The notes below the pieces were generated by a model. That model saw nothing but the letters and a program-made list of their open reading frames with translations. It made no database searches and was not told the origin of the DNA. 6,249 bases of DNA from a virus (Duplodnaviria; Heunggongvirae; Uroviricota; Caudoviricetes). Shown here piece after piece: positions 39 to 6,249 of this stretch (its first letter is position 1; each line of letters starts with the position of its first letter). A program made the position numbers and the translations under genes. Location: the IMG/VR virus record IMGVR_UViG_2778261571_000006, one strand, 5' to 3'.

Positions 39-308
39 TTACGTGGGTAGGATCACATCACGCAGAACATCATTTTCAGCTTTCGCATCAGCTAACTCCT
101 TCGTGTATTTTGCATCGAGCGCAGCAACATCACGCTGACGCATCTGCATGTCAGTAATTGCCGCGTTCGCCAGCTTCAGTTCTCTGGCATTTTTGTCGCG
201 CTGTTCTTTGTAGGCGATGGCGTTATCACGGTAATGATTAACACCCCATGACAGGCAGACGACGATGCAGATAACCAGAGCGGAGATAATCGCGGTTACT
301 CTGTTCAT
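39..308 (-). pseudogene. Rz-like i-spanin, C-terminally truncated (about 89 aa instead of about 150)
   Basis: ORF 39..320(-). The likely true start is the ATG at 306-308, which overlaps the endolysin TGA stop (ATGA). The N-terminal hydrophobic segment ([19 protein letters not shown]) and [30 protein letters not shown] core match lambdoid Rz as I recall it. The reading frame ends abruptly (…[12 protein letters not shown]), where canonical Rz continues about 60 more residues. Confidence 0.6.
53..88 (-). pseudogene. Rz1 o-spanin remnant (first 11 codons only, embedded in Rz in the +1 frame)
   Basis: Hand translation of the minus strand from the ATG at 86-88 gives [11 protein letters not shown] followed by TGA. 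This matches the start of the lambdoid Rz1 signal peptide but stops before the lipobox. The break coincides with the Rz truncation point. Confidence 0.45.
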
Positions 309-667
309 TGCTGACCCCACAAACAGATTTCACGCTCAATCTCACGACGAGTCATGAGACCTTTCCATTGCTTACCGCCAGCATATGTCCAGCGACGTAG
401 CTGATCACATGCGCCTTTGATATCGCCCTGGTTTATTTTGCGAAGAAGCGTCGATGTTCTGAAATTGCCAGCACCCACGTTGTAAACGAATGAGTAAAGA
501 GCGCCGCGCGTTGTTTCCGGTATATCGACTTTGATGTACGGGTTAATTTGTCTGGCGACCGTGGCAAGGTCTTTATTCAGGAGGGCTTTGCATTCTGCTT
601 TGGTATACGTTTTACCGAGCATGATGTCTTTTCCTGTATGCCCGTGACATACAGTCCATACACCAAC
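305..667 (-). pseudogene. SAR endolysin (phage 21 R-type lysozyme), 3' portion downstream of the IS2 insertion
   Basis: ORF 305..802(-); the residues encoded from 667 down to 305 ([28 protein letters not shown]…EICLWGQQ) read as a lambdoid lysozyme. The ORF's first about 45 residues are encoded by the IS2 left end and are not part of the original gene. Confidence 0.9.
663..667. repeat. Target-site duplication, left copy (CCAAC)
   Basis: The 5 bp immediately outside the IS2 left end are identical to the 5 bp at 1999-2003 outside the right end. Confidence 0.8.
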
Positions 668-758
668 TAGACTGGCCCCCTGAATCTCCAGACAACCAGT
701 ATCACTTAAATAAGTGATAGTCTTAATACTAGTTTTTAGACTAGTCATTGGAGAACAG

Positions 759-1124
759 ATGATTGATGTCTTAGGGCCGGAGAAACGCAGACGGCGTACC
801 ACACAGGAAAAGATCGCAATTGTTCAGCAGAGCTTTGAACCGGGGATGACGGTCTCCCTCGTTGCCCGGCAACATGGTGTAGCAGCCAGCCAGTTATTTC
901 TCTGGCGTAAGCAATACCAGGAAGGAAGTCTTACTGCTGTCGCCGCCGGAGAACAGGTTGTTCCTGCCTCTGAACTTGCTGCCGCCATGAAGCAGATTAA
1001 AGAACTCCAGCGCCTGCTCGGCAAGAAAACGATGGAAAATGAACTCCTCAAAGAAGCCGTTGAATATGGACGGGCAAAAAAGTGGATAGCGCACGCGCCC
1101 TTATTGCCCGGGGATGGGGAGTAA
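759..1124 (+). CDS. insC: IS2 OrfA (InsC), transposase N-terminal DNA-binding component
   Basis: ORF 714..1124(+); the likely true start is the ATG at 759 ([40 protein letters not shown]…), which is preceded by GGAGAACAG. Helix-turn-helix-like N-terminus. 121 aa. Confidence 0.9.
1076..1082 (+). other. Programmed -1 ribosomal frameshift site (A AAA AAG) joining OrfA and OrfB
   Basis: The heptamer A_AAA_AAG sits in the OrfA zero frame (GCA AAA AAG). A -1 slip continues into the OrfB frame (…K K V D S A R A L…). This is the standard IS3-family arrangement. Confidence 0.7.
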
Positions 1125-1987
1125 GCTTAGTCAGCCGTTGTCTCCGGGTGTCGCGTGCGCAGTTGCACTTCATTCTCAGACGAACCGATGACTGGATGGA
1201 TGGCCGCCGCAGTCGTCACACTGATGATACGGATGTGCTTCTCCGTATACACCATGTTATCGGAGAGCTGCCCACGTATGGTTATCGTCGGGTATGGGCG
1301 CAGCTTCGCAGACAGGCAGAACTTGATGGTATGCCTGCGATCAATGCCAAACGTGTTTACCGGATCATGCGCCAGAATGCGCTGTTGCTTGAGCGAAAAC
1401 CTGCTGTACCGCCATCGAAACGGGCACATACAGGCAGAGTGGCCGTGAAAGAAAGCAATCAGCGATGGTGCTCTGACGGGTTCGAGTTCTGCTGTGATAA
1501 CGGAGAGAGACTGCGTGTCACGTTCGCGCTGGACTGCTGTGATCGTGAGGCACTGCACTGGGCGGTGACTACCGGCGGCTTCAACAGTGAAACAGTACAG
1601 GACGTCATGCTGGGAGCGGTGGAACGCCGCTTCGGCAACGATCTTCCGTCGTCTCCAGTGGAGTGGCTGACGGATAATGGTTCATGCTACCGGGCTAATG
1701 AAACACGCCAGTTCGCCCGGATGTTGGGACTTGAACCGAAGAACACGGCGGTGCGGAGTCCGGAGAGTAACGGAATAGCAGAGAGCTTCGTGAAAACGAT
1801 AAAGCGTGACTACATCAGTATCATGCCCAAACCAGACGGGTTAACGGCAGCAAAGAACCTTGCAGAGGCGTTCGAGCATTATAACGAATGGCATCCGCAT
1901 AGTGCGCTGGGTTATCGCTCGCCACGGGAATATCTGCGGCAGCGGGCTTGTAATGGGTTAAGTGATAACAGATGTCTGGAAATATAG
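1082..1987 (+). CDS. insD: IS2 OrfB (InsD), DDE transposase catalytic component, expressed mainly as an OrfAB fusion
   Basis: ORF 1082..1987(+), 301 aa, GTG-initiated in the track ([13 protein letters not shown]…). Contains integrase-core-like motifs (…WCSDGFEF…, …[11 protein letters not shown]…, …ESNGIAESF…). Overlaps OrfA in the -1 frame. Confidence 0.9.
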
Positions 1988-1998
1988 GGGCAAATCCA

Positions 1999-2003
1999 CC
2001 AAC
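1999..2003. repeat. Target-site duplication, right copy (CCAAC)
   Basis: Identical to 663-667. IS2 is known to make 5-bp duplications. Confidence 0.8.
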
Positions 2004-2138
2004 AATATCTTTGTATGGTATGTAGCTGACACCTTCCAGACCATCGTTACCACTTGGGCCAGTGATTAACACTGATGCTATAGCAATTGCTCCGCCACCA
2101 ATAGCAGCAGCAACGGCTTTTCGTAATGATGGAGGCAT
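1999..2138 (-). pseudogene. SAR endolysin (phage 21 R-type), 5' portion upstream of the IS2 insertion
   Basis: ORF 1821..2138(-). The N-terminus [47 protein letters not shown] is a Gly/Ala-rich signal-arrest-release segment. The start ATG at 2136-2138 overlaps the holin stop (TAATG). Removing IS2 and one TSD copy rejoins this to 305..667 in frame: 140 + 363 - 5 = 498 nt, i.e. 165 codons plus stop. Confidence 0.9.
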
Positions 2139-2353
2139 TATTCACCTCTCGCAGCCTTGCGCTTATCTTCTTTAATCTTGAAATAAAGGTTTGTCAGGTA
2201 CGTCAGCAGGCCAAATACCAGACTACCCAGCACACCGATTGCAGCCCACTGTGACGGAGTTACTCTATCGAGCAACTGTAAAAACCAGTAGCCAGCACTG
2301 CCTGCGGAGGTGCCGTAGGCAATGCCTGTTGAAATTTTGTCCATGGATTTCAT
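2138..2353 (-). CDS. Pinholin (phage 21 S-type class II holin) with dual start Met1/Met4
   Basis: ORF 2138..2410(-). The likely true start is the ATG at 2351-2353, preceded by GGAGGTGAGGCT, giving [26 protein letters not shown]…[12 protein letters not shown] (71 aa). Two transmembrane segments and a charged C-terminus. Met1-Lys-Ser-Met4 matches the antiholin/holin dual-start motif. Confidence 0.85.
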
Positions 2354-2453
2354 AGCCTCACCTCCGCACGGAACGGATGGCATAGTTATTATGTGTAGGC
2401 TTTCAGACACATCAATCAGAGCCTTAATTGATATATATGCTGGAGACGATGCA

Positions 2454-2479
2454 ATATAAAAAGCTCGCCGTAGCGAGCT
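2454..2479 (-). terminator. Candidate intrinsic terminator (minus strand) between the lipoprotein genes and the holin
   Basis: 7-bp GC-containing stem AGCTCGC / GCGAGCT (2462-2468 and 2473-2479) with loop CGTA, followed on the minus strand by TTTTATATT. The T-run is short and interrupted. Confidence 0.4.
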
Positions 2480-3579: not shown

Positions 3580-3608
3580 TTTTCCTCACATATGTCATAT
3601 AGTAAAGG

Positions 3609-3638
3609 ATTATATATACCGTTGTTTTGGACGCTCAA
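3609..3638 (-). promoter_or_regulatory. Candidate sigma70 promoter for the lipoprotein pair
   Basis: On the minus strand, TTGAGC (-35-like, 3633-3638) and TATAAT (3609-3614) are separated by 18 nt, about 30 nt upstream of the 3579 start codon. Found by eye only. Confidence 0.3.
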
Positions 3639-3696
3639 ACAGCGAATCAGATCAAATAAAACGCACATTTGTTAACATTTACACAAAGTCTGCGTG

Positions 3697-3717
3697 GGAT
3701 ATTCTGAAAGAATATCC
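3697..3717. promoter_or_regulatory. Perfect 21-bp palindrome GGATATTCT-GAA-AGAATATCC (candidate operator)
   Basis: 9-bp arms with a 3-bp spacer, about 60-100 bp upstream of the candidate lipoprotein promoter. No adjacent T-run on either strand, so it is not terminator-like. Confidence 0.35.
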
Positions 3718-4170
3718 ATAATGTGGAGAGAATCTATTGAAGTGCATGGTGCCGGGTGCCTCCCGGTGAACAAAATGTTCGTGATACCTGTCGGCGACAG
3801 AAAAGGTTAATGGTATCACCCCACCGCACAGGGGGATTCACCATGCAGGAGTTTTCTTAGCAAACTCACTGCGCGCCCGGCAACTCCCAACCACATAAAA
3901 TGCGGAGTTTGTGGTATTTATGCATATAACTCGCAGGAATTATCTTAAAAAACTGATGTCGATCCGGATTAAAAAGAAGCAGGTCATCATCAGATGACTG
4001 GAAAAAAGGAAAACAAAAAATACTCATCATACAGTTTTGATTGCAGGGATGAGCCTGCTATGCACAATATGCAGAATATAAGCAAGATAAAAATATGCAG
4101 GCATATTATTTCGGATTTTGTTATTAACACAACCTTTTTAATAATCATTTGGCATACAATAAACCAGCCC

Positions 4171-4196
4171 AAAAAGAACCGCCTAAACAGGCGGTT
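4171..4196 (-). terminator. Intrinsic terminator (minus strand) in the late-leader region
   Basis: 8-bp stem AACCGCCT / AGGCGGTT (4177-4184 and 4189-4196) with loop AAAC, followed on the minus strand by CTTTTTGGG. Confidence 0.5.
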
Positions 4197-4440
4197 GGTC
4201 AATACAAAGGATGCTTCGTCTTTATTATAGTAATCTGAGGCGTCGGGTGTCTTGTATCAGACAACATATTGTCCCGCTAAACAGCGAATTACAAACCACC
4301 CTGCAATGATCTCTCATCTCATTTTATATGAGTTGACGACATCAGGATAACGCATCATCAGCCCCTGCCAAGAAATATCAAAACTCCCGCCAGCAATGTG
4401 TTATCACAATATTGTAAAAAAAACACAGCACCGAAACTAT

Positions 4441-4479
4441 AACTGGTCTCTGTTATAATTTGGAGCAGAAAGACCAGTT
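4441..4479. repeat. 9-bp inverted repeat (AACTGGTCT … AGACCAGTT) enclosing a TATAAT hexamer
   Basis: Arms at 4441-4449 and 4471-4479; the 21-nt spacer contains TATAAT at 4454-4459. Confidence 0.3.
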
Positions 4480-4516
4480 GCCCAACTAGCAGCATTCTCC
4501 CCTGCTTTCCTGACGT

Positions 4517-4543
4517 AAAAAAACCGCATTAAGCGGTTTTTTT
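4517..4543. terminator. Bidirectional intrinsic terminator just downstream of the Q-like gene (tR'-like position)
   Basis: AAAAAAACCGC-ATTAA-GCGGTTTTTTT: a GC stem flanked by a 7-A run and a 7-T run, so it is U-tailed on both strands. It lies about 80-105 nt downstream of the stop at 4624 on the minus strand. Confidence 0.6.
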
Positions 4544-4623
4544 ACGATGTCCATGTCTGCAATCCGCCTCGCGATACAGCTTTGCGAAGCATAGCAAAAT
4601 TGAAGCAGTTTATACGTAAGAAA

Positions 4624-6194: not shown

Positions 6195-6249
6195 GGTAAT
6201 GACTCCAACTTATTGATAGTGTTTTATGTTCAGATAATGCCCGATGACT
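6195..6249 (-). mobile_element. IS1 end (terminal inverted repeat), element continues beyond the window
   Basis: GGTAATGACTCCAACTTATTGATAGTGTTTTATGTTCAGATAATGCCCGATGAC matches the IS1 terminus including the InsB 3' end. Only this end is visible. Confidence 0.85.
6210..6249 (-). CDS. insB: IS1 transposase InsB, C-terminal codons only (partial at window edge)
   Basis: The minus strand reads …VIGHYLNIKHYQ* with the TAA stop at 6210-6212, which is the InsB C-terminus as I recall it. Confidence 0.7.
   Translation of the reverse strand, partial: VIGHYLNIKHYQ

Follow-up and report, generated by a model that had tools for sequence, protein, structure and literature searches.

Gene content of the window and identity of the holin

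The stretch of DNA analysed here, referred to below as the window, is 6,249 bp long and represents the late region of a lambdoid prophage in which every gene outside the insertion sequences (ISs) lies on the minus strand. In complete E. coli genomes, the matching region sits at the Rac prophage site, between ttcA and trkG/ompN. The window contains the following features.

1-55: end of an IS3 element, cutting the spanin genes Rz and Rz1
56-308, minus strand: 5' fragment of the i-spanin gene Rz, ~84 codons (PF03245, profile positions 1-56 of 126)
305-667, minus strand: 3' fragment of the SAR endolysin gene, codons 48-165 (PF00959, E=1.6e-41)
668-1998, plus strand: intact IS2 of 1,331 bp with insC and insD ORFs, identified by its ends and the transposase HTH domain
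1999-2138, minus strand: 5' fragment of the SAR endolysin gene, codons 1-47, holding the SAR domain, Glu35 and Asp44
2353-2138, minus strand: class II holin of the phage 21 S type (pinholin), 71 codons, uninterrupted
2356-2365, minus strand: tandem Shine-Dalgarno sequence, GGAGG at 2365-2361 (for Met1) and GAGG at 2359-2356 (for Met4)
2388-2415, minus strand: weak candidate sigma-70-like match, TTGATG/16 nt/CATAAT, 9 of 12 positions
2462-2479, minus strand: intrinsic-terminator-like hairpin with a T run, between a TolA-like lipoprotein gene and the holin
3000-2605 and 3579-3151, minus strand: two lipoprotein genes in tandem, each encoding a TolA C-terminal domain (PF06519, E=1e-14 and 2e-23, respectively)
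3600-4620: AT-rich non-coding stretch of ~1 kb with no supported ORFs, between the Q-like and TolA-like genes
4196-4177, minus strand: second terminator-like hairpin, between the Q-like and TolA-like genes
4513-4545: hairpin AAAAAAACCGC-ttaat-GCGGTTTTTTT, a symmetric A-run/GC stem/T-run, 79 nt downstream of the Q-like gene
5166-4624, minus strand: intact Q-like late antiterminator gene of the DUF1133 family, 180 aa (PF06576, E=2.5e-107; PF06530, weak)
5453-5163, minus strand: YbcO/DUF1364 gene, second in the order of non-IS genes
6052-5453, minus strand: NinB-like DUF1367 gene, first in the order of non-IS genes
6195-6249: end of an IS1 element, which stands in place of the prophage early region ahead of the nin-type genes

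The Q-like protein is identical to WP_000640161.1 and matches the PHROG family of Q-like anti-termination proteins (E=2e-79). Downstream of its gene, the hairpin at 4513-4545, which was read directly from the sequence and was not listed by the terminator scan, is one that we read as a tR'-like terminator of the late promoter region. A tRNA scan of positions 3600-4600 found no tRNA; at the place equivalent to 3600-4620, two related prophages (L018 and L019) contain tRNA-Arg, tRNA-Ile and a DUF3927 gene. The pair of TolA-like lipoprotein genes is placed moron-like between the Q/terminator region and the holin. Both proteins belong to PHROG 5772, a family of unknown function, and could act as periplasmic TolA decoys against TolA-using colicins or phages. 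The first of the two genes in the direction of transcription (3579-3151) is a complete 142-codon ORF here, while in RefSeq it is often labelled as a truncated tolA pseudogene. Beyond the IS1 element, a truncated recT follows in two of the compared loci (L001 and L004).

The holin gene starts with an ATG at 2353-2351, has a second in-frame ATG (Met4) at 2344-2342, and ends with a TAA stop at 2140-2138. It matches the Pfam family of bacteriophage P21 holin S (PF04971) with E=2.1e-35 and 120.9 bits (cutoff 26) over profile positions 1-63 of 64, as well as PHROG holin families with E=1e-37 and 5e-34, values well outside the range of chance. Its nucleotide sequence is 100% identical to the annotated essD (WP_000839565.1) in 11 Rac-site loci, including L001-L005, and the identical protein is named "phage lysis protein EssD" in RefSeq. 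The gene is a textbook pinholin allele that RefSeq already names.

The protein begins with MKSMDK, i.e., it has the dual-start motif Met1-Lys2-x-Met4 in the form Met1-Lys-Ser-Met4, and GGAGG is spaced 7 nt from the first ATG. An earlier note on this DNA had described a good Shine-Dalgarno sequence, this dual start and an uninterrupted frame, all of which are borne out by the ORF, the sequence itself and the PF04971 match. By analogy with S21-71 and S21-68, the 71-aa form starting at 2353 would be the antiholin, and the 68-aa form starting from Met4 (2344) the holin. A small hairpin predicted over the Shine-Dalgarno sequence would partially sequester it; with z=-0.5 and no compensatory changes, a conserved RNA structure governing the two starts is unproven and was set aside.

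The first transmembrane domain (TMD1, residues 8-28) is weakly hydrophobic, with a mean Kyte-Doolittle value of 0.56 and 57% G/A/S/T, while TMD2 (residues 36-58) has a mean hydropathy of 1.50. A face of small residues in TMD2, G40-x3-S44-x3-G48, is a defining property of S21-type holins, and all three residues are present here. The loop between the two segments reads DRVTPSQ, the C-terminal tail is basic, and the SAR endolysin gene lies directly downstream with a stop/start overlap, TAATG. Thus, the protein has all tested sequence-level features of the phage 21 S family, and by homology it would be expected to form pinholes. In a different holin allele (WP_000839557.1; positions 1105-1320 of L027, the same in L028 and in phage mEp460_ev081), the SAR endolysin gene is replaced by a gene for a "phage tail fiber protein" that has a stop/start overlap with the holin and is ~2.2 kb long in the record; the locus holds its first 1.1 kb (1-1105).

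Lesions in the partner genes and their age

The statements of the earlier note that the endolysin and spanins are dead agree with the lesions observed. IS2 splits the endolysin gene after codon 47, just ahead of Thr50 of the Glu35/Asp44/Thr50 triad, and both of its flanks (663-667 and 1999-2003) carry the perfect 5-bp target duplication CCAAC. The endolysin gene has no other lesion: in-silico removal of IS2 together with one duplicate yields a perfect 165-aa ORF of a phage-21-type SAR lysozyme with E35, D44 and T50, whose N-terminal SAR segment consists of 61% G/A/S/T. L002 and L003 contain IS2 copies with 100% identity to the inserted element. The reading frame of the endolysin 5' fragment stays open past the junction with IS2, giving a fusion ORF of 105 codons (2138-1821, minus strand), which, if translated with the holin, would produce a membrane-tethered SAR peptide devoid of the catalytic domain.

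The i-spanin gene Rz (start at 308) is interrupted at base 56 by the IS3 end, and 11 codons are left of the embedded o-spanin gene Rz1, whose start was placed at 88 from the register of rzoD in L005. The annotation of L002 and L004 gives an IS3-like element IS3 family transposase at the IS3 junction, and the remaining part of Rz/Rz1 lies beyond IS3. Genomes without the IS3 junction match the window from base 56 onward only, and among species-representative genomes no exact match to the IS3::Rz junction was found.

After exclusion of the three IS elements, the window comprises 4,803 bp and differs at two positions from L003 (strain DXMF6-3R) and L005 (strain ET665), namely, at 2116 (Ala/Val, endolysin codon 8) and 5584 (in the DUF1367 gene); the Q-like gene shows no differences from either locus. 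In both L003 and L005, essD, rrrD and Rz/Rz1 are intact, and the terminase genes are adjacent. For the 216 bp of the holin gene, this level of divergence gives an expectation of 0.09 substitutions and a probability of 0.91 for no substitution; as a clock, the divergence is crude, and the cassette may have been made uniform by recombination. Hence, the intact holin is what neutrality predicts.

The IS2 junction of the window occurs in only three of 5,426 genomes (S171-1, EC20-72C-1 and F467). Together with the two differences from intact cassettes in 4,803 bp, the perfect CCAAC duplication and the restorable endolysin, this supports the suggestion of the earlier note that the decay is recent. 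The breakage is in fact so recent that survival of the holin is uninformative about a new function. In S171-1, the DNA between IS3 and IS2 has been deleted, and F467 carries an additional IS3 precisely at the holin/endolysin junction. Thus, four IS events (IS3, IS2, IS1 and the second IS3 in F467) and the IS3-IS2 deletion in S171-1 are observed within ~6 kb in one young lineage, forming a stepwise series of decay of a prophage late region. The corresponding loci are positions 1-55, 668-1998 and 6195-6249 of the window, 8171-9333 of L002 and 3104-5238 of L004.

IS2-family insertions across the lysis cassette

Independent insertions of IS2-family elements were counted with a chimeric query, in which an IS2 end was joined in either orientation to the 251 bp preceding the holin; the insertion position was taken as the gap between the two matched pieces, and the respective loci were then fetched to confirm insertions in the holin. 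Four independent insertions were found inside the holin, 18 in the 498 bp downstream of it, at least 15 of these in rrrD-type endolysins, and 11 at 35-182 bp upstream of the holin ATG. The holin thus received 4 of the 22 insertions in the holin and downstream, compared with 6.7 expected from its length (p=0.16, not significant). For strictly Rac-type contexts, the share is 2 of 17 versus 5.1 expected (one-sided p=0.07), strain Z1323CEC0004 being among the two.

The four holin insertions differ in position. An IS2-family element is inserted at holin codon 45 in STLEFF_47 (target duplication CAGGC) and at codon 14 in DSM 101139 (GTGCC); in 2017.02.04CC, the insertion at codon 32 is accompanied by an adjacent deletion; and in Z1323CEC0004, the insertion follows Phe58, with both TMDs kept and rrrD and the spanins intact. 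In strain CP53, an IS2-family element is situated ~40 bp upstream of an otherwise intact cassette. The population contains cassettes with the holin intact and the endolysin and spanins broken, with the holin broken and the endolysin intact, with all genes intact but uncoupled from upstream, and with all genes deleted. Hence, the gene is not kept independently of its phage partners: its four independent disruptions include some beside an intact endolysin.

The region that starts upstream of the holin and extends through the endolysin (window positions 305-667 and 1999-2604; loci L001 and L006-L028) received 33 independent IS2-family insertions in ~965 bp, compared with five in the adjacent ~1 kb (p=1.3e-6), the latter counted with the anchor of the assay moved one kilobase upstream onto the TolA-like genes. 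Clean 5-bp duplications accompany nearly all insertions, and several targets were used repeatedly. Thus, AATTG (463-467) was reused by IS2 in both orientations; TCTGG (551-555) was reused by IS2, again in both orientations, and by ISEc36, which is 81% identical to IS2, and it was also hit in a 93%-identical cassette of another prophage; and CGATG (2447-2451) was used by IS2 and a 95%-identical relative in opposite orientations. An orientation-aware alignment of 22 IS2-family target sites revealed no consensus at any position, and the possibility that the targets mimic the IS2 inverted repeats was therefore dropped. A literature search returned no relevant report of an IS2 hot spot in lysis genes. 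Regional IS2 hot spots have been described in phage P1 in older reports.

The reuse of identical sites and the scarcity of insertions in the TolA-like region favour a target preference of IS2-family transposases over selection, and it is within this hot region that the endolysin was struck. The alternative is that host-level selection to disarm the lysis cassette lies behind the many insertions, any insertion that abolishes lysis being favoured and the endolysin being hit as the largest target. Such selection would be in line with the occurrence of insertions both ahead of the holin and within the holin, endolysin and Rz genes, and with the general finding of an early loss of lysis genes from cryptic prophages (PMC7744054); the loss of the DLP12 lysis module in Shigella has been described as pathoadaptive (PMC7918800). 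However, insertions between the late promoter and the holin, i.e., in the TolA-like region, should be just as polar, but their frequency is 6-7 times lower. Moreover, the use of the same 5-bp targets in both orientations, by different members of the IS2 family and in a 93%-identical cassette, points to target-site preference, and selection as the main cause seems unlikely to us. A bolder and distinctly doubtful extension of the same idea is that the S21-type cassette, from ~180 bp upstream of the holin to the endolysin end, provides a host-favoured, quasi-programmed route for disarming lysis, with the holin-only state perhaps tolerated or mildly favoured. The events to which it would apply are at least 33 independent insertions in ~1 kb among ~500 E. 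coli genomes with the cassette; the holin share within the hot region is about half the expectation, a shortage that, as given above, is not significant.

The cassette is a recurrent target of the IS2 family, with insertions often at identical nucleotides, and provides a natural system in which target preference and selection to disarm lysis can be told apart. This recurrence is of interest for prophage domestication and for the target choice of ISs, and it is the sole feature of the locus that is possibly worth a separate follow-up.

Retention of the holin and relation to known lysis systems

The reading that we prefer, with a probability of roughly 85%, is that the window holds an ordinary, still-intact essD allele in a freshly decaying Rac-site cassette, and that the allele is intact through its small target size (216 bp) and the almost complete lack of time since the insertions, not through a new role. 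In a working phage, transcription from the late promoter antiterminated by Q would lead to production of the 71-aa antiholin and the 68-aa holin from the two starts. As in phage 21, the extra Lys of the long form would hold TMD1 in the membrane; upon accumulation of the short form, the weakly hydrophobic TMD1 would leave the membrane, and TMD2 would form heptameric pinholes of ~2 nm. The pinholes would collapse the proton-motive force, and the membrane-tethered SAR endolysin would be released and activated (phage 21 mechanism reviewed in PMC9636201; see also the preprint bioRxiv 10.1101/2021.04.20.440580). In the present strain, by the proposed course of events, IS2 entered the endolysin, IS3 entered Rz/Rz1, and IS1 removed the early region expected to drive Q. 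Expression of the holin in a cell lacking the endolysin would cause death by depolarisation and no lysis, and what the earlier note said of this capacity is sound.

The holin is probably silent in this context, as three terminator-like hairpins separate Q from the holin and IS1 has taken the place of the early region expected to drive Q. The hairpin at 2462-2479, in particular, would shield the holin from transcription entering from upstream, except where RNA polymerase has been modified by Q. On the other hand, transcription of the homologous DLP12 cassette and its regulation by RpoE and Hha have been reported (PMC7918800, PMC2408971), and the sigma-70-like candidate, a consensus match only, is located 35-62 nt upstream of the holin ATG; given this match and the DLP12 analogue, the window holin may not be silent. 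The reported RpoE/Hha control itself is not transferable, since the upstream region is unrelated to that of the DLP12 essD. No neighbouring small ORF has support as a candidate antitoxin or immunity gene, and the holin context is that of an unchanged late operon.

Within the Rac-site loci, the holin is identical at the nucleotide level in 11 of 12. The sole change, S19R, puts a charge into TMD1 in strain 400660 (L006, 4589-4804), where the endolysin also carries an IS2. This substitution, a single case, could be a first sign of relaxed constraint. The dN/dS comparison proposed in the earlier note therefore has no power within this lineage. Across diverged alleles (DLP12-type, Qin-type and phage 434), it could be carried out and gave 0.06-0.18, values that say nothing about selection after loss of the endolysin, as the alleles come from viable or recently viable phages; they were accordingly rejected as evidence on this locus.

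The earlier note had also raised the possibility that the gene is retained for a toxin-like or abortive role. In such a scenario, a matching Q of a superinfecting lambdoid phage would trans-activate the late promoter and increase the amount of holin, causing premature depolarisation and a smaller burst with no lysis. The Q-like gene and the holin, together with the late promoter region, are indeed intact and colinear, S21-type pinholins alone collapse the proton-motive force (PMC9636201), and IS insertions in the holin show a mild, non-significant shortage. Nevertheless, recency fully accounts for the intactness of the gene. Inactivating changes in closely related copies, which the earlier note had named as evidence against such a role, were found: in near-identical sister copies, IS2-family elements interrupt the holin or separate it from the sequence upstream, with the endolysin left intact, and the Rac prophage of K-12 lacks the gene altogether. 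The S19R substitution is non-conservative, falls in TMD1 and occurs in a strain with rrrD::IS2. A PADLOC search found no match for the holin, the TolA-like proteins, Q or the NinB-like protein, with marginal HNH matches for YbcO only. Selection for a toxin-like or abortive effector is thus very unlikely.

Domestication of the holin for envelope physiology, along the lines proposed for the DLP12 lysis module and with effects on outer-membrane vesicles or on peptidoglycan turnover, is also very unlikely. A K-12 DLP12 double mutant that lacks the endolysin and spanins and keeps essD forms 2.4-fold more vesicles, with no such rise in mutants without essD (PMC7918800), but this effect is a by-product in an engineered strain with no demonstrated benefit, the region upstream of the holin is unrelated to that of the DLP12 essD past ~20 nt, and the disrupted sister copies and the absence of the gene from K-12 Rac count against this role as well.

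We conclude that the intact holin beside IS-broken partners probably represents the outcome of neutral decay lasting between a few hundred and a few thousand years. The lesson is a negative one: that a 216-bp gene is intact beside fresh IS insertions is no ground for calling it retained.

Among the known systems, the holin most directly compares with S of phage 21. Shared properties are the length of 71 aa, the Met-Lys-x-Met dual start, the Gly/Ala/Ser/Thr-rich TMD1 with the YWFLQ aromatic patch, G40/S44/G48 in TMD2, the basic C-terminal tail, the stop codon overlapping the start of a SAR endolysin, and the Glu35/Asp44/Thr50 triad of the latter (phage 21 family features from PMC9636201 and bioRxiv 10.1101/2021.04.20.440580). 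In the segments given in the preprint, the two proteins differ by YWFLQL in the window versus YWFLQW in phage 21 and by LDRVTPSQ versus LDQVSPSQ. In contrast to phage 21, the partner endolysin and spanins of the window are broken, and pinhole formation is ascribed here by homology.

The lambda holin gene S, with its S105 and S107 products, shares the logic of a dual-start holin/antiholin and the place at the head of the late lysis cassette. However, it is not homologous: it is a class I holin with three TMDs that forms micron-scale holes and works with a cytoplasmic endolysin, and S21-68 fails to complement lambda S (PMC9636201).

Closer relatives are found in phage 434 and in the DLP12 prophage of K-12. 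The phage 434 record (OL657227.1), annotated by a phage-lysis laboratory, has an S71 antiholin and an S68 holin starting nine bases in, two ribosome-binding sites at matching positions, a SAR endolysin, an i-spanin and an o-spanin. EssD of DLP12 and S of phage 434 belong to the same family as the window holin, with the same cassette order, S-R-Rz/Rz1; both show ~90% nucleotide identity, 4-5 amino-acid differences and dN/dS of 0.06-0.08 relative to the window gene. The DLP12 locus differs in three respects. Its endolysin and spanins are intact in K-12; the window is located at the Rac site next to trkG, and not at the DLP12 site; and upstream of the holin, the window contains two TolA-C-domain lipoprotein genes and a Q of the DUF1133 type, whereas DLP12 has nmpC and quuD.

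Finally, the Rac prophage of K-12 MG1655 occupies the same chromosomal site and keeps a trkG-proximal Rz/Rz1 remnant (rzpR', rzoR) along with trkG itself. Q, the holin and the endolysin are already gone from K-12 Rac, whereas the window captures a much earlier stage in the decay of a fuller prophage.
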